IMG/VR virus record: IMGVR_UViG_3300037851_000103
Location: 20,104 to 84,103 of that record
Origin: a virus
Lineage: Duplodnaviria > Caudoviricetes
DNA: 64,000 nucleotides
Direction: 5' to 3' (one strand)
Shown here: positions 25,375-53,691 of the stretch, in pieces
Position numbering within the stretch: the stretch's first letter is position 1
Layout: each line of letters begins with the position of its first letter
Position numbers and translations under genes: made by a program
Notes under the pieces: generated by a model
Database searches by the model: none
What the model saw: the letters and a program-made list of their open reading frames with translations, nothing else
Told to the model about the DNA's origin: nothing

Positions 25375-25385
25375 AGGAATAAAAA

Positions 25386-27059: not shown

Positions 27060-27079
27060 TTCAAAAATATTAAAAAAAT

Positions 27080-27087
27080 TATAAATA
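27080..27087 (+). promoter_or_regulatory. T4-type late promoter box TATAAATA
   Basis: Exact box in the intergenic gap before ORF 27123. Confidence 0.55.
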
Positions 27088-27122
27088 TATTAAAATGATT
27101 GAGTCATTAAAGGAAATCGTTA

Positions 27123-36100: not shown

Positions 36101-36768
36101 TTATTTGGCATTATTTTTAATAATTTTTGTAATTCTTGTATTTGATTATCTAATATTATTATATCTTCTGGTTTAGCATCTTTCTTTTTTAGATTTAATC
36201 TATAAATAAGAACATTAACATAATTTGCTACATAATTATTGGTATTTATTTCATTTCGATTTGCCAAAGAATCTGATATTTTTTTCCATTCTGTTATTTC
36301 TTCAATTCTGTATTTAATTTGTTTTTGTAATTTAATAAATTTATATTGTAGTTTTGAGAGATTTATTTTAGTTTCTCTTAAATCAAATTCTTTAATTGTT
36401 TTTTTATCTGAATCCGTTTCCGCTTGATATGAAGTTTGTATTTTTATTAATGTCAATTCTAATTTTTCTATATTTAATTGTAATAATTCTAAATCATATA
36501 TATCATTCAATAGTTGATCTGCATGAACTTCCGCTTCGATTTTGCATTGCCAATATTTAGACTCTGGTGTAGGAAAAGAAGAATCTGATAAAACCCCAAA
36601 TAGTTTAACTGGTAATGGTCTATACATAGGTACTTTATAATAATTATCCAAAATAAAATTTTTATTATTTTCAAGATTTTCCATGTCTTGTTTGGTCAAA
36701 ATACTTTTAGAAGATAATGATTCTAAAATACTACAATTTTTAAATGGTGTTAATTCAGTTTGATTCAT
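36097..36768 (-). CDS. Conserved phage hypothetical coiled-coil protein
   Basis: 223 aa; VLSDSSFPTPESKYWQC motif followed by coiled coil. Convergent TTAA stop overlap with ORF 34517. Confidence 0.6.
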   Translation of the reverse strand: MNQTELTPFKNCSILESLSSKSILTKQDMENLENNKNFILDNYYKVPMYRPLPVKLFGVLSDSSFPTPESKYWQCKIEAEVHADQLLNDIYDLELLQLNIEKLELTLIKIQTSYQAETDSDKKTIKEFDLRETKINLSKLQYKFIKLQKQIKYRIEEITEWKKISDSLANRNEINTNNYVANYVNVLIYRLNLKKKDAKPEDIIILDNQIQELQKLLKIMPNN

Positions 36769-36771
36769 ATT

Positions 36772-37362
36772 TCAATTTCCTATTATCTGATCCACAATAT
36801 TTAATTTTTTGCAAGTATCAGCATCTAGCCAAACGTCGCGTGCGGGTAATAATTCTTTTTCAATTCTTTTTTTAGTTAATCCCGTACATTCTTGATAATG
36901 ATTTAATAATCTATTATATATTCTATCTAATTCTCTCGTATGATTTTGTAATTCCGTGTGACTTCCGCCTATTTCTGTCGAGAATCTATGTGACATAAAT
37001 TGGGTTTTTTTAGTGCAACATCTATAGCCTTTTTCGCCAGCCATAAAAATAATTAATCCTCCTGAACATGCTTGTCCGTAAGCATGACAGTGAACAGGAG
37101 TTTCGATTTCAGAAATAACATCGCATATCATTTGTGAAGCATATAAATCGCCACCTGGACTGTTGATAATTAATTTTATCGGTTTTGGATTTTGTAAGGT
37201 TTTATTTAAATCGTCTATATTATATAACTGTTCAACTATTTCTCTGGAACTATCTATTTTTATTTCCCCTAAAATAAATAACCTAAAAGAACTCCAAATA
37301 TTATAATCATCTATATTATTATCCGGGGAAACTGTGCCTAATTGTATTTCTTGTGCGGTCAT
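36772..37362 (-). CDS. clpP: ATP-dependent Clp protease proteolytic subunit
   Basis: IINSPGGDL, GQACSGG (Ser), FMSHR (His) and RDVWL (Asp): the catalytic triad is present. Confidence 0.9.
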   Translation of the reverse strand: MTAQEIQLGTVSPDNNIDDYNIWSSFRLFILGEIKIDSSREIVEQLYNIDDLNKTLQNPKPIKLIINSPGGDLYASQMICDVISEIETPVHCHAYGQACSGGLIIFMAGEKGYRCCTKKTQFMSHRFSTEIGGSHTELQNHTRELDRIYNRLLNHYQECTGLTKKRIEKELLPARDVWLDADTCKKLNIVDQIIGN

Positions 37363-37377
37363 TTTTATTCCTTATGT

Positions 37378-37596
37378 TTAAATTTTTCCGACGTTATCAG
37401 GAATTTCATTTGGGTTAAAATATGATAAATTAGTATAATTATTTCCCTTTATTCTAGTAAATGAACCAGAACCAATAACACTTGTTTCACCACAATCACA
37501 AGTAGCCCATTCAGTATTTGAATGCGGAATAACTATATCTTTACATGCATTGCATTGTAATTTAATCTTTAATACTGTATTAGTCCAATGATCCAT
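37378..37596 (-). CDS. Small Zn-finger protein
   Basis: CNACKD...TCDCG four-Cys motif. Confidence 0.7.
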   Translation of the reverse strand: MDHWTNTVLKIKLQCNACKDIVIPHSNTEWATCDCGETSVIGSGSFTRIKGNNYTNLSYFNPNEIPDNVGKI

Positions 37597-37598
37597 AT

Positions 37599-38162
37599 TT
37601 AAATCCTTTCATACAATGAAATTATTTTATCACATACTGAAGAAAAATCAATTTTTGGGTGTAAATGAATTTGCTCATGCAAACATTCATCTGGTAATCT
37701 ATAAGCAGATTCATATTTATTAGTATATTGTATGCCTTGTCTACACAATTCAAAAACATAATCACATGATTTAGCTTCATTGACGAATCTTACATCTGGA
37801 ATAATTACAATGTTATAATGATTTTGTTTTTTCTTACATTTTTGTATCCAAAATTCATCGTGTATTAGTTTGCGAAAACAATCAGTTCCTACTTTATTTA
37901 ATAAATCTCTGGGAGAATACCCAATTAAACAAGGCAAGGGAGCGGTTAATTCCGTCCATTTTGTTTCTTTATATTGTCTATCTTGTAACGTCCTTATTGG
38001 AATTCCAGTAATATGCCAAACTAATTCATATAATTCATCACTAAAAGATGCTTTATTTATACATATCCCACTATAATTAAAATTCATCATTTTAATTATA
38101 GCATTTGCCGTTGTATCTTTTCCAACATTTTCTGGGCCAGCAAGACCTATAAAAAGAGTCAT
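37599..38162 (-). CDS. Deoxynucleoside monophosphate kinase (T4 gp1-like)
   Basis: IGLAGPENVGKDT P-loop, SFSDELY, PRDLLNKVGTD..R...DEFWI, IPDVRFVNE. Confidence 0.85.
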   Translation of the reverse strand: MTLFIGLAGPENVGKDTTANAIIKMMNFNYSGICINKASFSDELYELVWHITGIPIRTLQDRQYKETKWTELTAPLPCLIGYSPRDLLNKVGTDCFRKLIHDEFWIQKCKKKQNHYNIVIIPDVRFVNEAKSCDYVFELCRQGIQYTNKYESAYRLPDECLHEQIHLHPKIDFSSVCDKIISLYERI

Positions 38163-38432: not shown

Positions 38433-40355
38433 ATGACTGTTAGATATAGAGATAAAACAGTTGGGCATATACATAATGATCCTATTTATATTACCCAAGC
38501 TGATGCTAGTTCTGAATTAAAAATCGGTCAAGTTGTGTATCTAGATGCCTGTGGGAAATTCTTGCCTGCGATGGCTATTGTTGGAAAAAGCAATGTTGTT
38601 GGAGTCGTTTGGTCTATTGAATCCCCGCATTCTTTTTATTTAAAACAAACTCCTGGTCCTTTAATGTATCGTTTTCCATTAACAAAAGAATATTTTGCGA
38701 TGATTGGGGATAAAGTAATAGAAAATCAACCAAGTTCTGAAAAAATTCCTGGTGATATTGGGGCAAACTTATATCTAAGCGCAACTGAAGCAGGAAGTAT
38801 TACAAATGTTCCTGCTATTTCAGGTGGCGATATTAGCTGTACTAATACTTTAGTTGGCACAAAAATGCCATATGGGTGGCTTTTTGATCCTAAAGTTTCT
38901 TGTAAAGATGCATTGGGTGTATATTGCAATACTATATTGTTAGGTTATATATCAGGAATGACATTTTCTACTATTGCATTTGATTGCAATGAATGTGATT
39001 TAACGATCAAAGGTACGATTTGTGCATCATTTGATTATTATTACTGCGCCCAATCCTATGCATTAAATGATGCTTTGCCATATGGTGAATGTGGTGATTT
39101 AACGTTTGCCTTATCTGGAAATGGATTAACTATTTCTGGTACATCTGAAAATACTGCTTATATGATCTATATAAGAGATTCCAATAATGTAAGTTATACA
39201 TTTACATTAATGTGCGATCCTGATTTTATTGTGATTCCTGGTCCTGCTGGCCCCGCTGGTCCTCCTGGTGTTACTGGTCCTGCTGGCCCCGCTGGTCCTG
39301 CTGGTGCAACTGGTCCTGTTGGTCCCGCTGGCCCTCCTGGCCCTCCTGGGGCAAATGGCGCAATTGGCCCTTCTGGTCCTAAAGGGGATAAGGGAGATAA
39401 AGGAACAAATGGAACAAATGGCGTATGTCTAGAATGTGTTGACGTGTTAAATTATGGTTGTGGATTATCATTAACTGAAACTGATGATGGCGCATTATTA
39501 TATAATTCTGGATTGGTTGATATTGAACATCCAGAAACCTGTACTGCCGAATTTAGTGTTGTTGGTGGGTTATCGACTACTATTACTGATGATGGTTGCA
39601 AAAATTTGGCATATGCTAATAAAGGCATTAATTTTAATGTTCCTACCTCATTTGTAGGAGGGGCTACCTTATTAATAAAAACAACTTCTGCAACTTGTCC
39701 AAATATTGAATTATATGGTGGCAGATTATTTGGCACTACTTGTACTGGTGGTATTAATGAAGATGGCTGTGCGGGAGATAAATATCAAGCTAAAATTAAA
39801 GGTGAAATTGGTATTGACGTAATACAAACAGCTAACCCAACGAATCCTAGTGTAACAATATCTACTGTGTTAGATTGTGCATATATTGAAATTCCAACTC
39901 CAAAAATAAATAAACAACCTGCTGGGGTCGCCATTAGTCCTGGTCAAGAATTAGTTAGCGCAATAGATAACGGTGGAAATTGTGATTATAATTCTACAAT
40001 AAAAACGTTTCCTGGGCTTGGATTAAATCCATTAGACGAAACATTAAAATTTGGGGTATCAACAGTTGGCACTAATCTTATGTTTGATAATGGAAAAATT
40101 AATTTAACGACTAAAAAATTTCCAAATATTTCAGATGGTAATGGTACTCCAGTTTCAACTCCAGATAAGTATATAACAAAAGTTACTATTAATCAAACTG
40201 ATGCTACTAATTATAAACTTGATTATGAATACACGGATTCAGTTTTAAAAGATCCTGTTATAGCTGGGGAAGGATGTGCGATTATTGGTGTTACTAAAGG
40301 TGCTGAACAAAATTATATATTTACCAGAGGCAATGTATGTTGTACATATACTTGA
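38433..40355 (+). CDS. Collagen-like Cys-rich fibre protein (possible head fibre)
   Basis: 20 Gly-X-Y triplets at 39240-39419; N-terminal GQVVYLD..G....AMA....VVGVV...LYLS...AGSIT..P (capsid-cement/DUF2190-like pattern); about 23 Cys. Confidence 0.7.
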
Positions 40356-40369
40356 AAGAGGAATGAATA

Positions 40370-43300
40370 ATGCCTTGTGAATGCTCTGTTGCAACTATTT
40401 TAGGTTATTTAAATGCAACTTTGGATAATTTTAATACAATTAAAGATTCTATAATAACAAATTGTCCAACCTGGGCAACGGATTATGATTCTGGAACTGC
40501 GCTATGGAATGCAAAACAATTTGATCTTGGTACGGGGCAACCATCACCATGCACTTTTCAAAAATATGGGCCAAACTGTATTCTTACTGATCATACCAAT
40601 ACCTTTACTTTTTATGAAGCAGCTACTTATAATCCAACAGACCAAATAGATTTAAATTGTGATGATGGTACATGCTCTCATTTACCAGATGCTTTACTTG
40701 TTATAACAGAAGCAATAGAAGCAGTAAATCAATCTATTTGTGAAATATCAGAAGGGGCATTGATAAAACCTGATACTATCAATAGAATTAGAACGGCAAT
40801 TGGAAACGTTGCTGATAATTGTATTGTTAGTACAGCATCATCCCCTGAATGTTATGATAATGGTCAATCTGTTGAAGAATTAGAAAGCCCCGAAGAATGT
40901 TGGACTAAAACAACTTGTTATGACTTATCAATAAAATTTACAACATCTAAAGGGACTAATCCTAATGATTGTGATTGTGATGCGGGTGATTGTGAAGGAG
41001 TATTAGAAGATTGTTCAACGAGAGTAAACAGTGGTGATTATTTTTCCATCAAACATTTTTCGGAATTGGTTTCTGAATCTGGAAAATTAACGGGGAAACA
41101 ATATTGCTGGTGTTGTAATACCGGATCTTCTAGCTCATCTTCAATGTCATCTTCATCTTCAAATTCTTCAAGTTCGTCTAATTCCTCGTCTTCTTCATCA
41201 AAATCATCTTCTAGTTCATCATCTTCAAGATCATCATCCTCAAGTTCATCATCAAAATCATCTAGTTCATCCTCTTCAAGTGGTCCAAGTTCATCATCCT
41301 CAAGTTCTTCTAAATCATCTTCTAGTTCATCATCCTCAAGTTCTTCTAAATCATCTTCTAGTTCATCTTCTTCTGCTGTATCATCTTCTAGTTCCTCTTC
41401 TAGTTCATCATTATCATCGTCATCAAAATCTTCAAGCTCTAGTGCAACTAATTGTTGTATTTATAATGGGCCATATACCGATGTTGTATTATCAACTTTG
41501 GGAGCGGGACCATTTTATTGCGGAACCTCACATGAATTAGACTCTGGATATACAAGTTGTAATACTATTCCCTATCAAGATTATTGGGCGTTAGATATTT
41601 ATAGTGGGTTAATTTCTTCGCATCCATTTTCAATTGATACCGAAAATCCTTCTTGTATTGGGCTATTTAAAGCTGTTGAAATATTTTTTAAACGAGAAGA
41701 TGGTTTGGAAGAAACCATATCCATAACAGAACTAGATTCAAATAATGAGTATGGTTTTATTATGGGACAGTGCCCTAATGGCGATATTCCAACCCCGTCT
41801 GCCTTTATTTACAATAATCCATTATATGCTAAAAAATTAGAAATTACAAGACTTAGATTTTATGTATATGATGGGGTTTCATTTCAACCAGTATGTCAGT
41901 CTTATCAAGACTGTTCGATAATAATAGAATCTACTGAAAACGTATGCAATTCAGAGTATGAAATAGGAATAGAGACTGCTATTTATTGTGATATTTCTGA
42001 TATTCCTGCTTGTTTTAATATATCTTCGTCATCATCATCAAATTCATCGTTATCCTCTAATTCATCTTCGTCATCTTCTAAATCATCTTCTTCTTCCCAT
42101 TCATCATTATCATCTTCTAAATCTTCTAAATCATCATCTTCTTCTAGTAATCATGTAAGTTCTAAATCTCCTACTATGACAATTAAAATTCCAGATAGTA
42201 ATTTGTGTGGAATATGTCCGTCTAATTTATCGTTGACTTTAACTATTTATTATTTAGTCGATAACATATATGTTCCGTGGACTGGAAATATTGAAAGTAA
42301 AGATTGTTTAGGAGTTTATTATTGGGTTGTGCATGAATTAGAAGATTGTACTACCTATAAAATAATATTGGACGGGTCAGTTTCAACAACCCAAGGATGC
42401 GGTGATATCACGTTCCATGGCGAACGGTATGTTCAAGTATTATGTGATTGCCCCACAATGTCATCTTCAAAATCATCAAGTTCTTCAAAATCATCAAGTT
42501 CTTCTAAATCATCATCAAGTTCTTCTAAATCATCTAGATCATCATCTTCATCATCCTCAAGCTCTTCTAAATCATCCTCTAAATCATCATCATCCTCTAA
42601 ATCATCTTCAACCTCATCTAGTTCATCATCAATTTCATCGTCAAAATCATCATCTTCTAGCTCATCTTCAAAATCTTCTAGTTCTTCACGATCATCATCT
42701 AAATCCTCTGCATCATCAAGATCATCTTCAAAATCATCAAGATCATCATCTTCAAAATCTTCAAGTTCTAGCGCAAATTCTTATAATTATTCAACTCCTG
42801 GGGTCTATACATTGGAAGTTCCGTCAGGGGTTTCTAATTTAATAGTTATTACAGTTGGTGGTGGTGGTGGCGGTAACGGATCCTCATATTCCGGTGGTTC
42901 TGGTTACGGTATTGTCGGGAGTGGTGCCGGTGCGGGTGAAATAAATAACTCGTCAACTATTTCAGTAACGCCAAGTCAAGTATTATATATTTATGTTGGG
43001 GCCGGAGGTCTTGGAGGGTGTGCAACCCATAAAGTAACATGTACTCCCCCTGATCCTGGGTTTAAAGAAAAAGGTTATGCGGGTGAAGATACCTATGTTA
43101 GATTGAATGATAGCCCATTTACTGAATTTTGTAGATCTGCTGGCGGAAATGCTGGTTCTTCGCAAACGGTAGGGGGGGTTGGTGGGACTGGAAATGGGGG
43201 GACTGCTGGGGCTAATGGGGGAAATGGATATAATCCATTATCAAGTGGTACTTGGTCGGGGCCATTAGGCGGAACAAATGCCCAATATTCTTCATATGGT

Positions 43301-43393
43301 AAAGGTGGGGATGGGTCATCAATAACAACGGGGACATATGAAGAGGATGGTGAGGATGGAACCGGAGGATATGTAAGTATTCAATTATTTTAA
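40370..43393 (+). CDS. Poly-Ser/Cys-rich virion fibre-like protein with C-terminal glycine-rich domain
   Basis: Three Ser(Lys)-rich tracts separate Cys-rich blocks (about 40 Cys). The C-terminal YSTPGVYTLEVPSGV...VGGGGGG...VYVGAGG...GTGGYVSIQ pattern is typical of phage fibre Gly-rich domains. Confidence 0.7.
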   Translation: MPCECSVATILGYLNATLDNFNTIKDSIITNCPTWATDYDSGTALWNAKQFDLGTGQPSPCTFQKYGPNCILTDHTNTFTFYEAATYNPTDQIDLNCDDGTCSHLPDALLVITEAIEAVNQSICEISEGALIKPDTINRIRTAIGNVADNCIVSTASSPECYDNGQSVEELESPEECWTKTTCYDLSIKFTTSKGTNPNDCDCDAGDCEGVLEDCSTRVNSGDYFSIKHFSELVSESGKLTGKQYCWCCNTGSSSSSSMSSSSSNSSSSSNSSSSSSKSSSSSSSSRSSSSSSSSKSSSSSSSSGPSSSSSSSSKSSSSSSSSSSSKSSSSSSSSAVSSSSSSSSSSLSSSSKSSSSSATNCCIYNGPYTDVVLSTLGAGPFYCGTSHELDSGYTSCNTIPYQDYWALDIYSGLISSHPFSIDTENPSCIGLFKAVEIFFKREDGLEETISITELDSNNEYGFIMGQCPNGDIPTPSAFIYNNPLYAKKLEITRLRFYVYDGVSFQPVCQSYQDCSIIIESTENVCNSEYEIGIETAIYCDISDIPACFNISSSSSSNSSLSSNSSSSSSKSSSSSHSSLSSSKSSKSSSSSSNHVSSKSPTMTIKIPDSNLCGICPSNLSLTLTIYYLVDNIYVPWTGNIESKDCLGVYYWVVHELEDCTTYKIILDGSVSTTQGCGDITFHGERYVQVLCDCPTMSSSKSSSSSKSSSSSKSSSSSSKSSRSSSSSSSSSSKSSSKSSSSSKSSSTSSSSSSISSSKSSSSSSSSKSSSSSRSSSKSSASSRSSSKSSRSSSSKSSSSSANSYNYSTPGVYTLEVPSGVSNLIVITVGGGGGGNGSSYSGGSGYGIVGSGAGAGEINNSSTISVTPSQVLYIYVGAGGLGGCATHKVTCTPPDPGFKEKGYAGEDTYVRLNDSPFTEFCRSAGGNAGSSQTVGGVGGTGNGGTAGANGGNGYNPLSSGTWSGPLGGTNAQYSSYGKGGDGSSITTGTYEEDGEDGTGGYVSIQLF
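41288..41359 (+). repeat. Perfect 36-bp tandem duplication encoding S8-K-S3
   Basis: AGTTCATCATCCTCAAGTTCTTCTAAATCATCTTCT occurs twice in tandem. Confidence 0.9.
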
Positions 43394-43407
43394 TTTTTTT
43401 CATAATT

Positions 43408-43416
43408 TGCTATAAT
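43408..43416 (+). promoter_or_regulatory. Extended -10 promoter (TGcTATAAT), probably giving a leaderless mRNA
   Basis: 6 nt between TATAAT and ATG 43423; no SD. Confidence 0.55.
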
Positions 43417-43422
43417 TTAATT

Positions 43423-44379
43423 ATGAGAAAAGTAATTTTGAAAAATCATCAAAGTCCTGGTGATTTAGTAATGTTGTCTGCTTTGGTAAGAGATATTCAA
43501 AAATGTTGCCCTGGACAATATCAAGTTGATTTAGATGTAACATGTAAAGAAATTTTTGAAAATAATCCATATATTACTAAATTAAATCCAAAAGATCCAG
43601 ATATTATAAAAATAAATGCAGATTATAATTTAATTCATGATAGCAATAGACGCCCATTTCATTTTATTCATGGATTTATTCAAGATTTTAATGAAAAAAT
43701 GGATGAAAAGATATATCCAACTGAATTTAAGGGTGATATTCATTTATCTGGTGATGAAAAAGTATGGTATTCACAAGTTTACGAATTAATTGGAAAAGAT
43801 GTTCCCTATTGGATTGTTGTATCTGGTGGGAAACATGATTATACTGCTAAATGGTGGAATCATAATAAATTGCAACAAGTAATTAATTATTTTAAAGATA
43901 AAATAACATTTGTTCAAGTAGGAGAAAAAGAACATCATCATCCTATATTAGAAAATTCTATTAATTTAATAGGAAAAACCGATTTGAGACAATTAATACG
44001 GTTGATTTATCATTCGTATGGAATTGTTTGTCCAGTTACATCATTAATGCATTTTTCCGCCGCCATAGAAAATAAATTTGATAAAGATAGGATTAGACCC
44101 TGTGTGGTTATTGCTGGTGGTCGTGAAGGATCACATTGGGAGCAATATCCTGGGCATGCTTTTTTAGATACAATTGGAAGATTAAAATGTTGTAAAAATG
44201 GAGGATGTTGGAAATCAAAAATTGGAAATTTAGATAAATCTAATCATATAAAAGGACAGAGTTATTGTGAAAATCCCGTAGTTTCAAAAGGTAATATTAT
44301 TATTCCTAAATGTTTAGATATGATTACCGAATTTGATGTAATTCATGCTATAAATAATTTTTTGGAATATGACAAATGA
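43423..44379 (+). CDS. GT9-family ADP-heptose-dependent heptosyltransferase with C-terminal Cys cluster
   Basis: SPGDLVMLSALVRDI, FENNPYI, NLIGKTDLRQLIRLI...VTSLMHFSAA; C-terminal CCKNGGCW...YC...KCLDMIT. Confidence 0.8.
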   Translation: MRKVILKNHQSPGDLVMLSALVRDIQKCCPGQYQVDLDVTCKEIFENNPYITKLNPKDPDIIKINADYNLIHDSNRRPFHFIHGFIQDFNEKMDEKIYPTEFKGDIHLSGDEKVWYSQVYELIGKDVPYWIVVSGGKHDYTAKWWNHNKLQQVINYFKDKITFVQVGEKEHHHPILENSINLIGKTDLRQLIRLIYHSYGIVCPVTSLMHFSAAIENKFDKDRIRPCVVIAGGREGSHWEQYPGHAFLDTIGRLKCCKNGGCWKSKIGNLDKSNHIKGQSYCENPVVSKGNIIIPKCLDMITEFDVIHAINNFLEYDK

Positions 44380-45413
44380 AAATTGGAATCTTTTCTAAAT
44401 TTCAAATGGCTGGGGGGTCTGAATTTAGAAGTATTGAATTATGTAATGGTATTAACAATTTTTCTTCCCATGATTGTATATTATTAGTTGATTCTTCTAA
44501 ATTAAAACCAGAATTATTAAATAATATTAATCATAAAGATAAAATTATATATAATTGTTTTGATAATAAGGAAGAAATATATAATTGTGATTGTTTAATA
44601 ATAATTAATACAGACAGTAAAGAATTTTCAAAAATATCATATTGGAAGAATAAAAAGATTGATATATCAAGGCTTAAGAAAATGGTTTTTATTTATAATT
44701 TTATTATAAGTCCTTCTGAGAATTTACATGAATTTGAAAAATATAATGTTGATATTAGGATATGCGCCGGGAATCAAAGATTTTTAAATGAATTAACAAA
44801 TAAAGACAAATTAAAAAAAGTTAAACATTTACCAAGAATTGTATTAGAATCTCCCATTAATAAAGATACTATATATCAATTTAAAACACCGTCAGATAAA
44901 ATTCGTATAGGAAAACATTCAAAACCATTTGGTGATAAATGGAATGATGAGCATTATGATTTAATAAAAATGATTAATGATAAATATGAAGATAGAATTA
45001 TTTGGGATTTTATGGGGACTAATAAAGAATTTAACGAATCATTAAAATCATTTAAAAATGTTATATTGAGAGAACAATTTACATTACCTGTAAGTGTTTA
45101 TTTAATGAATCTTGATATATTTTTGTTTTATCCAAAGTGGAATAGGCAGGAATGTTGGGCGCGGTCTGTGGCAGAGGGATTATTATCAGGTTGTCCTGTA
45201 TTAGCAACAGATGTTGATGGTGGAAATAGAATGCAGATAGTTGATGGTAGTAATGGATATTTATGTAAGAATTTAGATATGTTTTATGAAAAATTAGAAT
45301 TTTTGATAAATAATAAACATATGATTGACAAATTAGGAAAGAATGCTAAATTATATGGAGAATATTTTACTACCGAATATATAATAGATAAACTTATGAG
45401 GTTTATAAAATGA
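44376..45413 (+). CDS. Glycosyltransferase family 4 (GT-B)
   Basis: GGSEFR N-terminus; ECWARSVAEGLLSGCPVLATDVDGG (E-x7-E) and IVDGSNGYL. Confidence 0.85.
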   Translation: MKIGIFSKFQMAGGSEFRSIELCNGINNFSSHDCILLVDSSKLKPELLNNINHKDKIIYNCFDNKEEIYNCDCLIIINTDSKEFSKISYWKNKKIDISRLKKMVFIYNFIISPSENLHEFEKYNVDIRICAGNQRFLNELTNKDKLKKVKHLPRIVLESPINKDTIYQFKTPSDKIRIGKHSKPFGDKWNDEHYDLIKMINDKYEDRIIWDFMGTNKEFNESLKSFKNVILREQFTLPVSVYLMNLDIFLFYPKWNRQECWARSVAEGLLSGCPVLATDVDGGNRMQIVDGSNGYLCKNLDMFYEKLEFLINNKHMIDKLGKNAKLYGEYFTTEYIIDKLMRFIK

Positions 45414-46216
45414 AATTGTGGGATGAATATAAATGGAATATATGGGATCCTATAAAGGAACCATTACCTGGAGAAATTAAAGATTATAAAAAAATAACAA
45501 TTTGTACTACTTGTATGAATAGAACTTATGATTTGAAAAGCACTTATATAAAGAATTTAGAAATATGTAAAAAATATCCAAATATTGATTGTGTATTATT
45601 AAATTATAACTCCAAAGATGATTTAGATGATTTTGTCCAAAATGAATTACAATCATATATTGATTCTGGATTATTAAATTATTATAAAACTACGGAACCC
45701 GAATTCTATGAAATGGGGCATTCGAGAAATATTGCATTTAAATTAGGTAACGGTGATATTGTTAATAATATAGATGCTGATAATTATTTACAAGATTATT
45801 ACATTAAAATTATTAATTTATTAGCACAAAATAATAATGATAATACGATATTTGTAAAAGGCAAAAGAATGATGCATGGGGTTTTAGGTATTTATAAATC
45901 TAAATTTTTAGAACTTGGTGGATATGATGAAGATTTATCTGGTTATGGTTACGATGATCATGATTTAGTAAATAGATTTATGGCATTAGGTGGTAAAATG
46001 ATGTGGTGGTGTAATTTATTACCTATTAATAGAATTAAAACAAAAAGAGAAGAAAAGTCTAAAAATATGAAAATAAAAGATTGGAAAATATCAGAAGATA
46101 AAAATAAAGAAATTTCTTTAACAAAATTAAAAAATAAAGAATTTATTGCCAATAAAAATAAATCATGGGGTGTAGCAACATTATTAAAAAATTTCAAGGA
46201 AACTATTCATGTATAA
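45410..46216 (+). CDS. Glycosyltransferase family 2 (GT-A)
   Basis: ITICTTCMNR, SRNIAFKLGNGDIVNNIDAD (DxD), GGYDEDLSGYGYDDHDL. Confidence 0.85.
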   Translation: MKLWDEYKWNIWDPIKEPLPGEIKDYKKITICTTCMNRTYDLKSTYIKNLEICKKYPNIDCVLLNYNSKDDLDDFVQNELQSYIDSGLLNYYKTTEPEFYEMGHSRNIAFKLGNGDIVNNIDADNYLQDYYIKIINLLAQNNNDNTIFVKGKRMMHGVLGIYKSKFLELGGYDEDLSGYGYDDHDLVNRFMALGGKMMWWCNLLPINRIKTKREEKSKNMKIKDWKISEDKNKEISLTKLKNKEFIANKNKSWGVATLLKNFKETIHV

Positions 46217-47015
46217 TGTAATTGTAGCCAATTATAATAAAGATAAATCTAATTCAGTTAAAAAATATTCTTTGAAAACTTTAGAATTAGATTTAAAAGC
46301 TCAAATAGATAATAGTTTACAATTGGGATGGGATGTTACTAATTTTTTGGTTTTAACAAATTTTGATTTTGAATATTTAAATATTAAATCTACTCAAATT
46401 AATTTAAACAAAAATTGTTTAACGGGTAGTAAATTATTTGCCATGAGAGAAATATTTAAATTAAACATGGTGGACGATAATATTTGGATACACGATTTGG
46501 ATGCATGGCAAAATGATGTGTTTGAATTTCCTGATATTGAATATTGTGGGTTGTGTGAGTATAGCAAACCTAAATTTAATGGGGGTAGTATGTTTTATAC
46601 CCCAAAAGCAAAAAATATAATTTTTGCGTTATGTGAATATTTAGAAAAAAATAATCAAGCCAGAGAAGAACCAACTTTAGATAAAATATTAAGAAATGAA
46701 TTTAAAAAAGAAACCGTTATTTTAAATAGTTCTTATAATGTAGGGTGTTCTGGATTTAAAAAACGATATGATAAAGCCATAAAACCTATAAAAGTTATTC
46801 ATGGCCATTTAGGAAATAATAGATTGTCATGGGATACTCATGTAAGAGGTAGAAATGGTCCTGAATATGTTTCTTGTTCAGACAGATTAAAGAAATTAAT
46901 TATAAATTATTATGATGACAAAATTAAAACTTTTAAATATGAAGACGATATTGGGCCATATGAAAAACGAATAAAAGAAGTTGATAGAATCTTAGCAAAA
47001 AGGATGAGGCTATGA
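46209..47015 (+). CDS. Putative nucleotide-diphospho-sugar transferase (GT-A-like)
   Basis: IWIHDLDAWQ (DxD), FNGGSMFY, EEPTL, YNVG, VIHGH. Confidence 0.6.
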   Translation: MYNVIVANYNKDKSNSVKKYSLKTLELDLKAQIDNSLQLGWDVTNFLVLTNFDFEYLNIKSTQINLNKNCLTGSKLFAMREIFKLNMVDDNIWIHDLDAWQNDVFEFPDIEYCGLCEYSKPKFNGGSMFYTPKAKNIIFALCEYLEKNNQAREEPTLDKILRNEFKKETVILNSSYNVGCSGFKKRYDKAIKPIKVIHGHLGNNRLSWDTHVRGRNGPEYVSCSDRLKKLIINYYDDKIKTFKYEDDIGPYEKRIKEVDRILAKRMRL

Positions 47016-47692
47016 AATTAAAAAATATTGAATTGGTGGATGAATTTAAAAAAATAATTGATGAAAAATTAATTAATGAAGATTTTTTAACTAATTTTAT
47101 ATTTTATAAGGTTGGGTTATCATTAAATGTCAAAGCATTAAAAATTAATGATAAGAAAATCACTGAATGTTGGAATGGGTTGTGTTGTAGTCAATATCCA
47201 AATGAATTAGCTAAATTTTTAATTTGGATATATAACAATAAATTAACTATTAATTCATATTGTGAAGTGGGAATTAATAGAGGCGGTACATTTTTTGTAA
47301 TTGATAGCTTTTTGCGAGCATGCAATCCAAATTATAATTATGGATTAGCAATTGATGTTATGGATAAAGTTGTAAGAAAACATAATTTTATGGATTATCA
47401 AAATAAATATAAAAATTGTTATTTTATACAAATGGATTCTAAAAAATTTGAAACTACTAGAAATTTTGATTTAGTATTTATAGACGGCGATCATTCTTAT
47501 GCTGGTGTAAAAGGGGATTATGAAATATTTAAACCAATTAGTAAATATACTGCTTTTCATGATATTAAATGGTTAGGGTGTGACGTTCCTAAATTCTGGG
47601 GAGAATTGACAGGTGATAAAAAAGAATTTTTAAATACTGATTTTAAAAGATTCCCAATTACTATTGGTATTGGACTTATTAAAAATGCATAA
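47012..47692 (+). CDS. Class I SAM-dependent methyltransferase (Methyltransf_24-like)
   Basis: YCEVGINRGGT, FDLVFIDGDHSY.GVK.DY, AFHDI. Confidence 0.85.
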   Translation: MKLKNIELVDEFKKIIDEKLINEDFLTNFIFYKVGLSLNVKALKINDKKITECWNGLCCSQYPNELAKFLIWIYNNKLTINSYCEVGINRGGTFFVIDSFLRACNPNYNYGLAIDVMDKVVRKHNFMDYQNKYKNCYFIQMDSKKFETTRNFDLVFIDGDHSYAGVKGDYEIFKPISKYTAFHDIKWLGCDVPKFWGELTGDKKEFLNTDFKRFPITIGIGLIKNA

Positions 47693-48383
47693 AATATATT
47701 CTCCAAGAGAAACACATCTTGGGGGGACATTAAATGATTTAAATTATTATATTCATTTAGCTAAACAAGAAAATATTACTGTTAATCTATCTAATCATTA
47801 TATTAAAGGAAAATCAAAAAAATATCCATGGGCACAAAAAGAATTGTTAGAATTATTAATTGATAAAAATTTAATTAATATTACAGAAAACGATCCAACT
47901 GAACCATATAAAAAATGGAATGATTGTTTTATAGAATTGCCGTTTTGCAAATCAAAATATTCTTGGAAAAACAATTCTAAAATTATTGCGTATCAATTTG
48001 ATGGGAAAACCCATAAATGTAAGAATTTTCCTTCTACAAATATAGAAAATCTTATTTTAGATCATATTAAATTTTATGGATATGAACCAATACGATTAGG
48101 AAATCATTTAACATTAAATGCTTGTTCTCAAATATTGAGCAATTGTTTATGTTTAGTTTGTATAGATAGTGGTTTTGGGTGGTTAGCTAAGACTATTGGG
48201 ACACCTATATTTTTTACTAAGAATTGTTTTCCTGAAAAAATATTTCATGAATATCATGATAATTCCCATTTTCATTTAAGTGATAATTATATTGATCTTA
48301 TAAATAATTTACGATCTTTATTCTATTATGGATTTGATTATTATAAAAATAATTGCTTTAATAAACAATGGATAGATGATTAA
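47685..48383 (+). CDS. Putative GT9/GT-B-like glycosyltransferase
   Basis: HLGG N-terminus, AYQFDG, LNACSQILSNCLCLVCIDSGFGWLA (DSG motif). Start set at MHKIY, which overlaps the upstream stop. Confidence 0.55.
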   Translation: MHKIYSPRETHLGGTLNDLNYYIHLAKQENITVNLSNHYIKGKSKKYPWAQKELLELLIDKNLINITENDPTEPYKKWNDCFIELPFCKSKYSWKNNSKIIAYQFDGKTHKCKNFPSTNIENLILDHIKFYGYEPIRLGNHLTLNACSQILSNCLCLVCIDSGFGWLAKTIGTPIFFTKNCFPEKIFHEYHDNSHFHLSDNYIDLINNLRSLFYYGFDYYKNNCFNKQWIDD

Positions 48384-49290
48384 AGAGAAACTTATGATAA
48401 ACGTTGACTATGAATATGAAATTGGACGAATAAAAAACAACAATTTTATTGAATATGGAAAAATCTGTTTTAATAAAGATGGTTCTATTACTAAAAAATT
48501 TGGAAATAAATGGTTTTCTGATAATCATTTTGTAACATGGAAATTGAGAAATTTTCAGTTGTACATTTTAGACAATGATAAAAACATTACGTTTATTATT
48601 GATATAAATTACGGATATATTTTATTAGGAAAATATTTAAATTTAAATCAAAAAATTTATTTAATAATAAATAATTCATTTCTTGAAAAATATAATATTT
48701 TTTATAAAAAAATTATTCGTGAAATTATATTTAATAATTCATATGGATTATTATCTGGAATGAATTTTTATCCTGATTATATAATAGATATTGGAGCAAA
48801 TATTGGTATTTTTACTTTGTTGGCCTCTTATATATTTCCAAATTCAACTATTATAGCGATTGAACCAGAATTGAATAATTTTGTTCAACTAAAAAACCAT
48901 TGTGTTTCATGGAATATTAAATGTGAAAATAAGTTATTATATAATAAAGATAACGAATTATTAAATTTAAATTTAAACAGAGGTCAAAATTTAGGTGGCC
49001 ACAAATTATCTACCAACATTGGACCCATACAAACAATTACATGGAGGACGTTACTTAATAAATATAATATCACAGAAAAATCATCAATATTATTAAAATT
49101 TGACTGTGAAGGGTGTGAACAATATTTTATAGAACTATTATCTGAGTATTCTAATATAAAATATATATGCGGGGAAATTCATTATAATTTTAATGATAAC
49201 ATTAAAAAATCAACCAATGCATTCTCTAAATATTTTGATATCAGTAAATTTAAAAAAGAAAAAACATTTAATTTTATTTGGACTGATTAA
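48376..49290 (+). CDS. FkbM-family methyltransferase with N-terminal extension
   Basis: IIDIGANIGIFT, IAIEPELNNF, LLKFDCEGCE. Confidence 0.85.
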   Translation: MIKEKLMINVDYEYEIGRIKNNNFIEYGKICFNKDGSITKKFGNKWFSDNHFVTWKLRNFQLYILDNDKNITFIIDINYGYILLGKYLNLNQKIYLIINNSFLEKYNIFYKKIIREIIFNNSYGLLSGMNFYPDYIIDIGANIGIFTLLASYIFPNSTIIAIEPELNNFVQLKNHCVSWNIKCENKLLYNKDNELLNLNLNRGQNLGGHKLSTNIGPIQTITWRTLLNKYNITEKSSILLKFDCEGCEQYFIELLSEYSNIKYICGEIHYNFNDNIKKSTNAFSKYFDISKFKKEKTFNFIWTD

Positions 49291-49293
49291 TAA

Positions 49294-50136
49294 ATGTTAT
49301 ATAATAAAAAAAATGGATTTCCTAATGTAAGAATATATCCGAAAACTAATGGAGTAATTCATCCCTATCTGGCACCAAAAAAACTTGCTTTATGCTATTC
49401 TGGCATTCCAAGAGATTGTTTTAAAACATATTATAATCATATCATGTATTTTACTAAATGGTTCGAAAATTATGATATTGATATTTTCTTTCATTTTTGG
49501 TATAAAGATAGCAATGAAAACAGTAGTGACCCAGCAATGAGTTTTAAAGGTGTTCACTATTCAAAATTTTATAATTGGAATAATTTAGGAAGCAAACAAG
49601 AAATATTAGATTTATATCGCCCCAAATTATATAATTTTGAACAACCTATTTGTTTTGATACCAAGTTAATCAAAACTAGACGTATTTTAACTAATAATGT
49701 TTATTCGATGTTTAATAGTATTTTGAAATGTAATGAATTAAAAACCCAATATGAAAATAAATATAATTTTATATATGATACTGTTATTAGAATAAGAACT
49801 GATTTAATTTGCCTGGATACGAATATACAATATCCAATTAATAATGAATTATATACATTCAAAAAATATAGTAAATTTAAAACCCATGATACTTTTGCTA
49901 TTGGCGATTCAAAAAATATGAATATTTATTCAGAAATGTTTAATAATTTAGAATATATACAAACTAAATATAAATGCAATTCTATCCCTGAGACTTTATT
50001 ATATTTTTGGTTGGCTGAAAATAAAGTGAAAAATAATCAAATATTAAGATACTTTCCTTTGTATAGAATGTATATTGACCCGATTAAATCAATATTTAGA
50101 AAGCCATATTCTGTAAATGAATTGGGAGTATTATAA
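49294..50136 (+). CDS. Putative glycosyltransferase-like protein of viral glycan clusters
   Basis: LALCYSG.PR, IDIFFHFW, YDTVIRIRTDL, DTFAIG...M.IYS, PETLL. Confidence 0.5.
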   Translation: MLYNKKNGFPNVRIYPKTNGVIHPYLAPKKLALCYSGIPRDCFKTYYNHIMYFTKWFENYDIDIFFHFWYKDSNENSSDPAMSFKGVHYSKFYNWNNLGSKQEILDLYRPKLYNFEQPICFDTKLIKTRRILTNNVYSMFNSILKCNELKTQYENKYNFIYDTVIRIRTDLICLDTNIQYPINNELYTFKKYSKFKTHDTFAIGDSKNMNIYSEMFNNLEYIQTKYKCNSIPETLLYFWLAENKVKNNQILRYFPLYRMYIDPIKSIFRKPYSVNELGVL

Positions 50137-50148
50137 ATTATTATAAAC

Positions 50149-50157
50149 TGATATAAT
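50149..50157 (+). promoter_or_regulatory. Extended -10 promoter (TGaTATAAT), probably giving a leaderless mRNA
   Basis: 6 nt between TATAAT and ATG 50164; no SD. Confidence 0.55.
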
Positions 50158-50163
50158 ATTATA

Positions 50164-51072
50164 ATGATTTATATAACAGGTGGCTCTGGATTTATTGGAA
50201 CCAATCTTATAAAATATTTCAATAATTTAAATATTTTTGATATTATTGTTATTGATTATAAAGAACCAGAACAATCTTTAAAAATAAAAAATTATATAAC
50301 CCCTAGTATATTTTTAACACTTCTACCAACCATTAAAAATGAAGAAATAATTCATTTAGGGGCAATAACAGATACATTATGTAATGACTCAAATTTATTA
50401 ACTAAGGAAAATATTAATTATTCTACAGAAATAATAGACTATTGTAGTCGAAATAATAATAAGTGTATTTATGCGAGTAGTGCGTCCGTATATGGGAATG
50501 GTAATAATTTTCAGGATGGTTCCTTTATAGGTGAGTTAAGACAATTACATCCCATAAATTTATACGCACAATCAAAATTACAAGTCGATGCATTCGCCTC
50601 CTATTTTTTTGATAATTCCTCTCTATTTGGGCTGAGATTTTTTAATGTATTTGGGCCATATGATTATAAAAAAGGAAATATGTCAAATTTTATTTGTAAG
50701 AATTTTAATAAATTTAAAAATAAAGAACCTATTAAATTGTTTAAAATGAATACCATACCTCAACGAGATTTTATTTATGTAACTGATGTGTGCTATATAA
50801 TTTATGAATTTTTGAATAAATCATTAAAACCTAGTATTTATAATGTGGGAACTGGTATTTCTAATACTTGGGAAGATTTTTGTAAATATATGTATATAGC
50901 TAATGGGCATGAATTTTCAAATGAATTAATACAATATATAGAACCAACCTTTTCGTTAAATGGGTATCAATATTTTACAAAAGCTGATATAAGTAAATTA
51001 AGAATGCAAATCCAATATATTCCAACCACATTAAAAAAGGCATGTTATAATTATGTTCAATCTGGATTATAA
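50164..51072 (+). CDS. hldD: ADP-L-glycero-D-manno-heptose 6-epimerase
   Basis: ITGGSGFIGTN, HLGAITDT, YASSASVYG, PINLYAQSK (YxxxK), GLRFFNVFGP...KGNM, RDFIYVTDV, YQYFTKADISKLR. Confidence 0.9.
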   Translation: MIYITGGSGFIGTNLIKYFNNLNIFDIIVIDYKEPEQSLKIKNYITPSIFLTLLPTIKNEEIIHLGAITDTLCNDSNLLTKENINYSTEIIDYCSRNNNKCIYASSASVYGNGNNFQDGSFIGELRQLHPINLYAQSKLQVDAFASYFFDNSSLFGLRFFNVFGPYDYKKGNMSNFICKNFNKFKNKEPIKLFKMNTIPQRDFIYVTDVCYIIYEFLNKSLKPSIYNVGTGISNTWEDFCKYMYIANGHEFSNELIQYIEPTFSLNGYQYFTKADISKLRMQIQYIPTTLKKACYNYVQSGL

Positions 51073-52408
51073 GAAACCAAATATATTAGTTATTGGGGAT
51101 TTTTTACAAGATATTTATAATTATGGAATCATAACGAGGATTAATCCTGAATCTCCCTGCCCATTAATCAATAATAAAGAAGTAACTTATTCATTAGGTG
51201 GTGCGGGAAATGTTGTTAATAATTTAATATCATTAAATGCTAATGTGTTTGCTATTGGTATTATTGGATACGATGATGCGGGACGCTTTATTGAAAAACA
51301 ATTACACTCCTTATTAACTATGTCTAATTGCTTTCTATTTAAAATTAAAAATAAAACAACTCCTGTTAAAACAAGATTTTATGCTGATAATGTTCAATTA
51401 TTACGAGTTGATAAAGAACATAATTGTGAATTATCAATAGAAAATAAAAATGATATTTGTATGAATTTAAAAACCATTTTAAAAAATACTAAAATTGATT
51501 CAGTAATAGTTTCAGATTATAATAAAGGTATTACAGATGATGGATTGTGTCAAGAATATATAAAAATATGCAAAGACCAGAATATTCCTATATATATTGA
51601 TCCGAAAAAAGATTTTAAATATTATAAAAATTGTACATTTATTAAACCAAATTTATCAGAGGTTGAGAAATTTGCCCATTTTAATTTTTATGATTATAAA
51701 ACTATGTTACAATATATTATAGGAACATATCAAATTGAAACTGCAATGATAACATTAGGTAATCAAGGGTTGGTATATTTAGAACGAGGAAAAGAATTTA
51801 AACATTTTCAATCTGAAATAGCAGAAGTAAAAGATGTATGTGGGGCTGGGGATACCGTGTTATCTACATTTGTATATTTAAAATCAATTGGATTAGACTC
51901 TTATAAAGCAGCAGAATTGGCTAATATAGCAGGGGGTATATCCTGTTTGCATATTGGAACATATTCAGTTAAATTGAACGATCTTATTCAAAAAACAAAA
52001 ATAATATCAGATAAAATATTAAAAAATATTCTTCCAAATAATAAAAAAATCGTATTTTGCAATGGTTGTTTTGATCCTATTCACCCAGGTCATATTGAAT
52101 TATTTAAATATGCTAAAGCACAAGGGGATATTTTGATAGTTGCTACCAATTGTGATGCATATATTAAAAGAAAAGGGAATAATCGACCGAATTTTTTATT
52201 AAATGATCGGTTGAATATGTTAGCAAGTATACAATATATTGATTATGTAACATGGTTTGATGAAGATACCCCAGAAAATTTATTAAAAATAATTAATCCT
52301 AATATTTATGTTGTTGGGAATGATCATGCAAATGACCATACTAAAATTATAAAAGATGTTAGAATTTTTAATAGATATGGCAATTATAGTTCATCAAAAA
52401 TTAATTAG
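51053..52408 (+). CDS. hldE: Bifunctional heptose-7-phosphate kinase / heptose-1-phosphate adenylyltransferase
   Basis: PfkB domain (VIGDFLQD..YG...RINPESPCP, GGAGNV, DVCGAGDT) plus cytidylyltransferase-like domain (NGCFDPIHPGH, RP.....R..ML, FDEDTP). Confidence 0.92.
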   Translation: MFNLDYKKPNILVIGDFLQDIYNYGIITRINPESPCPLINNKEVTYSLGGAGNVVNNLISLNANVFAIGIIGYDDAGRFIEKQLHSLLTMSNCFLFKIKNKTTPVKTRFYADNVQLLRVDKEHNCELSIENKNDICMNLKTILKNTKIDSVIVSDYNKGITDDGLCQEYIKICKDQNIPIYIDPKKDFKYYKNCTFIKPNLSEVEKFAHFNFYDYKTMLQYIIGTYQIETAMITLGNQGLVYLERGKEFKHFQSEIAEVKDVCGAGDTVLSTFVYLKSIGLDSYKAAELANIAGGISCLHIGTYSVKLNDLIQKTKIISDKILKNILPNNKKIVFCNGCFDPIHPGHIELFKYAKAQGDILIVATNCDAYIKRKGNNRPNFLLNDRLNMLASIQYIDYVTWFDEDTPENLLKIINPNIYVVGNDHANDHTKIIKDVRIFNRYGNYSSSKIN

Positions 52409-52917
52409 CCACAGCATTTTTTAAATTTTTTACCAGAACCACATGGGCATTTTTCATTGCGACCAATAAATAAATTATTAGGTGCTTTGTTAATATGGGT
52501 TGGTGCTGTTAATAATTGATCTAATGATAATTTTTGTGAATTATTTATAAATTTAGGAGCATAATTTATATTTTGTTGTATTGGTTGTGAAACGGGGGTT
52601 TTATATGGGGTGCCGTCATTTATTCTTAATTTACCATTATCATTAACAATAATTCCCAATTGTAACAATTGCTTTGTTGCTTCAATTTCTTCTTGTTCTT
52701 CAATTGGTGATTTATCTGATTGTTTATCTTGAAATTGATACCATTTATAATCTTTTTCTGGAACTGGAGTCGTATCATCAAAATCTGCATTGCATGTTAA
52801 ATCATCAAAAGTAAAGCACCATTCATTTTTTGCTAAAAAATCATTTGATACTTGGCCATGATTTTGAAGAGTTTGTTTATTCGCGGGTTGATTCACCGTA
52901 TGCTCCTTCGGCGTCAT
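52405..52917 (-). CDS. SEC-C motif protein
   Basis: C-terminal [20 protein letters not shown]. Confidence 0.85.
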
Positions 52918-53248
52918 TTAATGTTTTATATATATTTGATGGGGTTGGAAGTGTATCTTCTTCTGAGTTCATATTAATTTTTCGTGAAACCGTAATTGGT
53001 AACGGTGGATTAAAATCTTGTTCAGGAGTTTGTTCAGCTTCCGGTTCTGAATTGTTTTTAAATGTTAATAATTTATAAATGCTTACGAGAATCATCCATG
53101 ATAACAAGGAATGATTTTTAATAATTTCTAAATCATGAGGCAGCAGAGTTAATAAATAAATTAATAGCGAAAGTAAAAATATCTCTCCCATTATTGAAAC
53201 CATATCCCACCAATATATTTTAATTAATTCGTTAATTATTTTTTTCAT
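52877..53248 (-). CDS. Hypothetical membrane protein
   Basis: Two hydrophobic segments in the N-terminal half; ATGA overlap with the upstream gene. Confidence 0.55.
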   Translation of the reverse strand: MKKIINELIKIYWWDMVSIMGEIFLLSLLIYLLTLLPHDLEIIKNHSLLSWMILVSIYKLLTFKNNSEPEAEQTPEQDFNPPLPITVSRKINMNSEEDTLPTPSNIYKTLNDAEGAYGESTRE

Positions 53249-53691
53249 ATTTTATCCTCTTTAAATAACTTTGTTAATTCCGGTGAAATCTGACGCAATC
53301 CTGTTCCTCCAATTTTTTTATGAATATTTTTCCAATGATAATCGTGTTTCATGTCCCATGCCAAAAAAAATTGCAATAAATGTGAAATTTCGTGACTAAT
53401 TATTTCATATTGGAAATATTTTTGTTTTGAAAAAATTATTGGGCATAATGATATTTCCATTTTTTTAAGTGATTTATATTTAATTTCAGTATCAACAAAT
53501 GCCCAAATATTATCATATTCATATAACGAATGATCATATTTTATTTCGACTGGAATTTCTAATAAATTTTCATAAAGAGTAAAATATTTTTCATTTCCGC
53601 AATTATTTTTAAATTTTTCCATTGCAATTGTTATAAGAGGGATGACAATATTATTATAATCATTATAATCTGTATTGATAATCAATATCAT
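53245..53691 (-). CDS. SprT-like metalloprotease
   Basis: ISHEISHL (HExxH) followed by KHDYHWK...IGG. Confidence 0.7.
   Translation of the reverse strand: MILIINTDYNDYNNIVIPLITIAMEKFKNNCGNEKYFTLYENLLEIPVEIKYDHSLYEYDNIWAFVDTEIKYKSLKKMEISLCPIIFSKQKYFQYEIISHEISHLLQFFLAWDMKHDYHWKNIHKKIGGTGLRQISPELTKLFKEDKI

Follow-up and report, generated by a model that had tools for sequence, protein, structure and literature searches.

The DNA described here, hereafter the window, is the final 64 kb (64,000 nucleotides) of an 84,103-bp linear virus record, IMG/VR IMGVR_UViG_3300037851_000103; coordinates are those of the window unless they carry the number of another locus. Our subject is a gene for a fibre-like protein with three long runs of serine (40370-43393), and the ten genes that follow it, the first of which encodes a glycosyltransferase (GT) of family GT9. 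CheckV puts the record at ~38% completeness, which implies a genome of ~220 kb, and its G+C content is ~27%. The 12 genes between 38433 and 52408 are all on the same (+) strand and overlap or are separated by short gaps; the ten that lie 3′ of the poly-Ser gene either overlap or are no more than 29 nt apart. No terminator-like sites were found between 40370 and 52408. A promoter scan in this AT-rich DNA was uninformative (104 sites vs. 128 expected). After the poly-Ser gene the order is GT9, GT4, GT2, GT-A-like, Methyltransf_24 (MT24), a 239-amino-acid (aa) open reading frame (ORF), FkbM, DUF7796-like, HldD and HldE. The features that matter most are as follows:

40370..43393, + strand: poly-Ser, Cys-rich fibre-like protein, 1007 aa with 283 Ser and 40 Cys (from the translation); the proposed glycosylation substrate
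41126..41449, + strand: Ser tract 1, aa 253-360 (108 aa), 85% Ser
42023..42154, + strand: Ser tract 2, aa 552-595 (44 aa), 77% Ser
42461..42778, + strand: Ser tract 3, aa 698-803 (106 aa), 80% Ser
42794..43369, + strand: C-terminal glycine-rich domain, aa 809-1000 (PF21722 Gly_rich_2, 26.9 bits vs. cut-off 24.3)
43423..44379, + strand: lead glycosyltransferase, 318 aa, GT-B fold of family GT9, 'CCxxGGCWKS' subfamily (PF01075, 27.1 bits, cut-off 22)

An earlier reading of the sequence (the original prediction) had seen a fibre-like gene with three long poly-Ser tracts followed 29 nt later by a GT9 gene, and both ORFs, the spacing and the tracts (77-85% Ser) are as it described them. The tracts are broken by K, R or N at ~8-residue intervals, and between them lie Cys-rich globular segments. 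This is the only Ser-rich ORF among the 119 of the 84-kb record. All six Ser codons are used in the tracts (TCT/TCA/AGT/TCC/TCG/AGC), and the repeats at the DNA level are degenerate (63-87% match). The tracts are therefore not the product of simple slippage or chance, but are kept at the protein level. The gene is the last of a tail tube, baseplate and fibre module, a position that suggests that its product is a virion fibre.

The GT9 was modeled with AlphaFold (AF2) on an alignment of 35 family sequences, with high confidence (pLDDT, the predicted local distance difference test, 89.6; predicted template modeling score 0.89). In VIA-align comparisons the model is closest to a Veillonella GT9 (3TOV, Z 23.7), followed by WaaF (Z 20.9), WaaC (Z 19.7) and TibC (4RAP, Z 19.5; root-mean-square deviation 3.0 with 263 residues aligned). 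Other GT-B folds score ~10 and Foldseek is in agreement, so the protein has a true GT9 fold. The comparison of TibC with WaaC and WaaF that the original prediction had called for thus returns the fold with confidence, without telling the candidates apart: on this model, a lipid or a protein acceptor would fit alike. The label 'TibC/AAH-like' is not supported as a family assignment. The N-terminal beta-barrel of TibC is missing; the alignment pairs residues 1-318 of the model with TibC 96-391, and the Rossmann fold opens at residue 2 with its first strand. When the profile of the family alignment was run against PDB sequences, only WaaF was found (E 0.14, around the 'LMHxAAA' donor motif), and TibC did not appear up to E 10. 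The donor-site motif 'G-x-T-x-L...LMH-x-AAA' is common to the subfamily and the GT9 heptosyltransferases of lipopolysaccharide (LPS). Asp14, in an invariant SPGD motif, occupies the position of the catalytic Asp of WaaC and TibC. Four Cys (256, 262, 282 and 297), invariant in the 35 members, lie within an insertion in the C-lobe. As the enzyme is soluble, uses a nucleotide sugar and carries no signal sequence, it probably acts in the cytoplasm.

These resemblances bring in the possibility that the target is the host envelope. Supplied by HldD and HldE, the GT9 and the remaining transferases would then alter the LPS core or a surface glycan of the host, the poly-Ser gene being a mere neighbour, and the outcome could be superinfection exclusion or progeny kept from sticking to debris. 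WaaF and WaaC are among the closest structures, WaaF is the sole sequence-profile match in the PDB, and HldD and HldE are enzymes of LPS-core precursor synthesis. Yet the GT9 reaches only 17.8 bits against the WaaF equivalog model TIGR02195, whose cut-off is 134.6, and the operon sits within the late structural module, not among early genes. Two further observations, described below, are left unexplained by host remodeling: the enrichment of Ser-rich genes beside the GT9, which extends over 17 unrelated families, and the presence of the module inside a cluster for a tail-like particle, next to the Ser-tract fibre-like protein of that particle. We regard remodeling of the host envelope as unlikely, bearing in mind that in roughly one of two related loci the 10 kb around the GT9 are free of Ser-rich genes, as that explanation would expect.

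The evidence that carries our interpretation comes from the relatives of the GT9. Single-sequence searches of viral contigs for them were empty, whereas an alignment-based search succeeded, yielding 124 IMG/VR loci. The subfamily comprises >3000 proteins of ~50% identity and occurs in at least 536 bacterial species genomes, among them those of Verrucomicrobiota, Planctomycetota, Acidobacteriota, Eremiobacterota, Gemmatimonadota and cultured Paraburkholderia and Caballeronia. No relative was found among 50,697 GenBank phage records; with thousands of metagenomic members, the carrier phages seem to be wholly uncultured lineages. The nearest relative is L001, whose GT9 is 67% identical; there the gene for a Cys-rich poly-Ser protein ends 31 nt upstream of the GT9, and the same GT4, GT2 and GT8-like genes follow. 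In L002, a 379-kb soil phage, the GT9 comes two genes after a 1261-aa protein with 24% Ser.

The association was assessed over 164 loci, which were reduced to 60 GT9 clusters by keeping one locus per 70%-identity cluster. With Ser-rich defined as at least 18 Ser in 30 residues, 19 of the 324 genes up to three positions from the GT9 are Ser-rich, compared with 6 of the 579 that are five or more positions away (odds ratio 5.9, Fisher p 5e-5). With the Ser tracts masked, the Ser-rich neighbours fall into 17 unrelated families. The GT9 subfamily is thus found beside Ser-tract proteins in many unrelated phages and bacteria, and so it probably glycosylates Ser runs. Many loci have the GT9 and a Ser-rich gene with no homologue of the GT4 or GT2 of the window, which leaves the GT9 as the common denominator. 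The original prediction had named the poly-Ser protein as the likely substrate of the GT9-led cluster, and that choice gains from an enrichment that exceeds distance-matched genes. It had also called for a search for GT9, hldD and hldE together with poly-Ser genes in large-phage genomes: the Ser-rich part of this combination recurs, the heptose part is rare, with HldE no more than 10 kb from the GT9 in just 7 of 164 loci.

The association extends beyond phages. In Paraburkholderia phymatum EG181B (L148:1-20933, NZ_JBFRCH010000024.1) the module lies inside the gene cluster of a tail-like particle (extracellular contractile injection system, eCIS), in the order two Baseplate_J genes, a Ser-tract protein of DUF6519/beta-helix type, the GT9, a fusion of GT9 and methyltransferase, and an eCIS_core protein. 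Caballeronia telluris has a mobile island with an integrase and IS91, where an MT24 protein and the GT9 are accompanied by a convergent Ser-rich protein. Ser tracts also occur in further bacterial neighbours of the GT9: a trypsin-like protease and a metalloprotease-like protein.

We therefore favour, as somewhat better than an even chance, the view that the operon is a phage-encoded cytoplasmic O-glycosylation system that acts on the poly-Ser tracts of the fibre-like protein upstream. In the simplest account, the GT9 subfamily acts on Ser tracts, and the operon of the window is an elaborated version that adds extension, methylation and a supply of ADP-heptose. The product would be displayed on the virion. 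That heptose is the first sugar added by this GT9 is a more tentative suggestion, which we would put at well under an even chance; it comes from the GT9 fold and from the HldD and HldE of the operon.

Several points weigh against this view. The whole case is built on gene neighbourhood. The modeled fold favours no protein acceptor over lipid or LPS (WaaF Z 20.9 vs. TibC Z 19.5). The association is partial: a Ser-rich gene lies within three genes of the GT9 in 17 of the 60 clusters, and in two large clades (L035-L069) none is found within 10 kb. The scarcity of HldE near the GT9, given above, also counts here. The control was gene distance inside the same loci, not GT9-free phage genomes; a ClpP-based control set of phage loci came to only two loci. 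No PHROG match and no homologue identify the poly-Ser protein as part of the virion. Its Gly-rich C-terminal domain had no homologue in searches that included the 50,697 GenBank phage records, and the single-sequence AlphaFold model of the domain (pLDDT 33) was unusable, leaving a 'fibre head' without fold support.

The cluster could also have another target. It may modify the capsid, the tail or the collagen-like fibre encoded directly upstream of the poly-Ser gene, or else produce a polysaccharide, free or lipid-linked, the Ser tracts being plain flexible linkers that are found near the GT9 because accessory genes gather at fibre modules. Poly-Ser linkers without known glycosylation exist. 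In two genomes where no Ser-rich gene adjoins the GT9, such genes are found elsewhere: G001 (95% complete) has 3-4 Ser-rich ORFs at a distance of about 35 kb or more, and in G002 (complete) the GT9 and a long Ser-rich ORF are ~20 kb apart. Ser-rich genes that lie 20-35 kb away suit this explanation, and the fact that these genomes have such ORFs at all also counts in favour of glycosylated Ser tracts. The TCN-repeat DNA pattern is ambiguous for poly-Ser genes, as acidic tracts on the opposite strand match too, and a full ORF scan of one 232-kb genome was used in its place. Glycosylation of capsid and tail tube has a precedent in mycobacteriophages (cited in PMC12619734). Opposed to these points are the steep drop in Ser-rich frequency with gene distance from the GT9 inside the same loci, and the adjacency in bacterial contexts that involve no fibre (the trypsin-like protease, the metalloprotease-like protein and the mobile island). 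On this balance a different target appears improbable.

How the proposed glycosylation of Ser tracts might proceed can be outlined. The HldE- and HldD-like enzymes would raise the pool of ADP-heptose, with GmhA and GmhB supplied by the host or by the missing ~60% of the genome. The soluble GT9 would recognize bare Ser runs, not a folded domain, and move the first sugar, probably heptose, onto Ser hydroxyls with the invariant Asp14 as the base. The GT4, GT2 and GT8-like enzymes, possibly with the 239-aa GT9-like protein, would lengthen the glycan, and the two methyltransferases would O-methylate it. Once glycosylated, the tracts would be stiff, mucin-like and resistant to proteases, and would act as spacers that separate the Cys-rich globular domains of a tail-associated fibre.

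GT9 family members from different phyla are ~50% identical and their N-terminal domain is invariant, while the neighbouring proteins are unrelated; such conservation despite unrelated neighbours fits recognition of a simple shared feature. A wider proposal is that bare poly-Ser is a general 'glyco-tag', read by one highly conserved GT9-subfamily enzyme that usually has a methyltransferase and a second GT9-like domain as partners. With this enzyme, jumbo phages, diverse bacteria and tail-like injection particles would turn the Ser runs of unrelated proteins into mucin-like, methylated and possibly heptose-based bottle-brush spacers, and many uncultured phages would have a self-made fibre glycocalyx. 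We offer it as a conjecture that falls a little short of an even chance.

Comparison with known systems helps to define what would be new. TibC and AAH, the bacterial autotransporter heptosyltransferases (BAHT), are GT9 enzymes that O-heptosylate Ser in the cytoplasm (eLife 2014, PMC4358343). TibC has a flattened N-terminal beta-barrel (residues 1-97) that is needed for activity and a four-Cys iron finger in the C-lobe (Cys339/342/358/370), and the features of BAHT enzymes also include a thumb in the form of a beta-hairpin, as well as a dodecameric ring (PMC4358343). The phage GT9 shares with them a catalytic domain of the GT9-type GT-B fold, probable cytoplasmic action as a soluble enzyme, and a gene that adjoins one for a protein with many Ser, the proposed acceptors in our case. 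The invariant Asp at the position of the N-terminal base is a further likeness, and the four invariant Cys of the C-lobe insertion, whose position is roughly comparable to that of the TibC iron finger, may be another. Unlike BAHT enzymes, the phage GT9 lacks the N-terminal barrel, has no sequence homology to TibC that the PDB profile search could find, and is accompanied by enzymes for extension and methylation. Its neighbour carries low-complexity poly-Ser in a fibre-like protein, whereas the BAHT acceptors are Ser on the beta-helix of an autotransporter. WaaC, WaaF and the Veillonella 3TOV are the best structural matches and have the GT9 donor-site motif in common with the phage enzyme. They differ from the phage subfamily in that the latter has the extra Cys-rich insertion, and has Ser-tract proteins and methyltransferases, rather than LPS-core genes, as genomic partners.

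The dedicated O-glycosylation of a Ser-rich protein is itself known; what would be new here is the enzyme subfamily and the carrier. Gram-positive bacteria have Ser-rich repeat glycoproteins and SD-repeat adhesins, GspB and Fap1 being modified by GtfA/GtfB and the SD repeats by SdgA/SdgB. The likeness is in the low-complexity Ser-rich tract, the adjoining genes for dedicated cytoplasmic GTs and the stepwise extension, which is proposed for the phage. The initiating enzyme differs, being a GT9 rather than the GT4 GtfA/B, and is not GtfA/SdgB-like; the GT4 of the operon scores 33.2 bits against the NCBIfam SdgA model (cut-off 800), in the generic C-terminal half only. Compared with the GspB/Fap1 systems, there is no accessory Sec system, and the carrier belongs to a phage or a tail-like particle.

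Among phages, the closest case is that of the mycobacteriophages, where glycans on C-terminal extensions of capsid and tail-tube subunits have been shown experimentally (Freeman et al. 2023, as cited in PMC12619734 and PMC12801897). There too, phage-encoded GTs are thought to decorate structural proteins of their own virion; the enzyme families and hosts differ, and the carrier proposed here is a dedicated poly-Ser fibre-like protein. We found no description in the literature of the pairing of this GT9 with Ser-tract proteins.

If our interpretation is right, a widespread route of protein O-glycosylation has so far gone undescribed, with a new GT9 subfamily of thousands of members and a new class of substrate, poly-Ser tracts. 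Virion self-glycosylation, so far a matter of a few mycobacteriophages, would also take in large uncultured phages and tail-like injection particles. A coat of glycans on the fibres would matter for host recognition, for resistance to proteases and antibodies, and for adherence to mucus or biofilm, and the GT9 could become a simple tool for tag-directed glycosylation. As cultured Paraburkholderia phymatum has a copy of the GT9, the idea is testable without isolating a phage.

Fusions of the GT9 in other genomes are consistent with the make-up of the operon. The GT9 is fused elsewhere to Methyltransf_24 (L089, L103 and L162), FkbM, a second GT9 domain, GT4, Mannosyl_trans3, Erv1/ALR or zinc ribbons, a set that overlaps with the domains encoded in the window operon. 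A second GT9-like partner, adjacent or fused, is detectable in 34 of the searched loci. At L014:7799-11317 a 1172-aa protein joins GT9-like, FkbM, GT9 and Erv1/ALR sulfhydryl oxidase domains. It adjoins a Cys-rich poly-Ser protein, and the poly-Ser protein of the window has 40 Cys; some phages may couple glycosylation with the formation of disulfides.

The remaining genes of the operon are:

44376..45413, + strand: GT4 glycosyltransferase, 345 aa (PF00534, PF13692)
45410..46216, + strand: GT2 glycosyltransferase, 268 aa (PF10111, PF02709, PF00535)
46209..47015, + strand: GT-A fold protein, GT8-like/nucleotide-diphospho-sugar transferase-like, 268 aa (from its Atlas structure only, no Pfam match)
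47012..47692, + strand: class I S-adenosylmethionine methyltransferase, Methyltransf_24, 226 aa (PF13578, 30.4 bits)
47664..48383, + strand: 239-aa protein, weakly matched to the C-terminal domain of GT9 (PF01075, E 0.02 and 0.001)
48376..49290, + strand: FkbM-family methyltransferase, 304 aa (TIGR01444, 53.2 bits vs. cut-off 37.7)
49294..50136, + strand: phage-specific DUF7796/phrog_13607 protein, 280 aa (phrog_13607, E 4.5e-19)
50164..51072, + strand: HldD-like ADP-glyceromanno-heptose 6-epimerase, 302 aa (TIGR02197, 221.7 bits, under the cut-off of 274.6)
51053..52408, + strand: HldE-like bifunctional heptose-7-phosphate kinase/heptose-1-phosphate adenylyltransferase, 451 aa (NF008454, 296.8 bits over residues 5-429, cut-off 521)

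The content attributed to the cluster by the original prediction is borne out for the GT9, GT4, GT2, GT-A-like, methyltransferase (two) and HldD-like and HldE-like genes; the gene order needed correction, and the genes number ten. Homologues of the GT4 adjoin the GT9 in 14 viral loci, the GT2 co-occurs with the GT9 in 13 and the GT8-like gene in 12, and GT9-GT4-GT2-GT8-like forms a conserved block. The GT-A-like assignment of 46209-47015 stands in the form GT-A/GT8-like, from the Atlas structure only (template modeling score, TM, 0.64), whose neighbours are GT8 and Nucleotid_trans structures (TM 0.61-0.67). Two other assignments fell away. The 'second GT9-like' gene (47664-48383) has the weak Pfam match only, and its profile does not match that of the main GT9 family (hhalign probability 0.4); homologues of it are present in L007 and L038. 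For 'another GT-like gene' (49294-50136), which matches phrog_13607/DUF7796, nothing points to a glycosyltransferase, and its Atlas neighbours are nearly all viral and unnamed.

The putative heptose enzymes match heptose-specific proteins from end to end, with scores that stay under the NCBIfam equivalog cut-offs. The top PDB matches of the HldD-like protein are all ADP-heptose 6-epimerases (best 1EQ2, 2e-34, residues 1-281), and the catalytic Y-x3-K motif of short-chain dehydrogenases/reductases is aligned. Both domains of the HldE-like protein are covered (TIGR02198, 271.7 bits, cut-off 345; TIGR02199, 114.6 bits, cut-off 181.5), and its best PDB matches are heptose-specific (HldA 4E84, 9e-27; HldC 5X9Q, 5.5e-19). 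No gmhA or gmhB was found in the 84-kb record, which is ~38% complete. In the nearest relative (L001:11758-13162), a gene for a SIS-domain protein, which may be GmhA, lies 3′ of the epimerase gene, the place that HldE holds in the window operon.

The first 36 kb of the window form a contractile-tail module, and the features on this side of the poly-Ser gene are:

6340-7065: tail tube gene (phrog_45)
8555-10243: baseplate hub
10675-14280: baseplate wedge
14324-33224, + strand: giant ORFs of 2325, 1358 and 2033 aa, 3′ of the baseplate wedge, without PHROG or family matches
36097-38162, - strand: three-gene interruption of the structural module, consisting of a 223-aa ORF, a ClpP-like protease and a dNMP (deoxynucleoside monophosphate)-kinase-like gene
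38433..40355, + strand: collagen-like tail-fibre protein, 640 aa (PF01391 Collagen, 37 bits; 20 PHROG tail-fibre families)

The giant ORFs are presumably baseplate or fibre components of undefined type. Within the interruption, the ClpP-like protease matches PF00574 (1.9e-34) and the dNMP-kinase-like gene (37599-38162, - strand) matches PF21448. The latter could hint at modified nucleotides, and with it at DNA hypermodification, in which the transferases would put sugars on modified phage bases. Phage glycosyltransferases of that kind are known (bioRxiv 10.1101/2023.12.21.572611). The original prediction had seen no base-modification enzyme, and among the genes scanned in 34517-55732 there is indeed no hydroxymethylase, TET-like or other base-modifying enzyme. 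Hypermodification would also leave unexplained the Ser-rich link and why bacteria have the module in clusters for tail-like particles and on mobile islands, and we consider it very improbable. None of the three alternatives, whether host surface, another target on the particle or DNA modification, explains the linkage to Ser tracts.

The N-terminal ~125 aa of the collagen-like fibre (38433-38810) are a domain that is also found in the Ser-rich 1261-aa protein of the soil jumbo phage L002 (L002:4299-8084; 44% identity over 126 aa, E 3e-27), and it is probably a common fibre-attachment module. This part of the fibre has no relative in the 50,697 GenBank phage records. The domain (MTVxxRDKTVxHxHxDP...), which lies at L002:4299-4700 in the 1261-aa protein, is also present in a 228-aa protein of the same phage (L002:8086-8772).

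At the other end, the region 52405-53691 (- strand) holds a gene for a 170-aa protein with a C-terminal SEC-C metal-binding motif and a weak match to PL28 ulvan lyase. A gene for an SprT-like metalloprotease lies near it, and both are convergent with the end of the operon.

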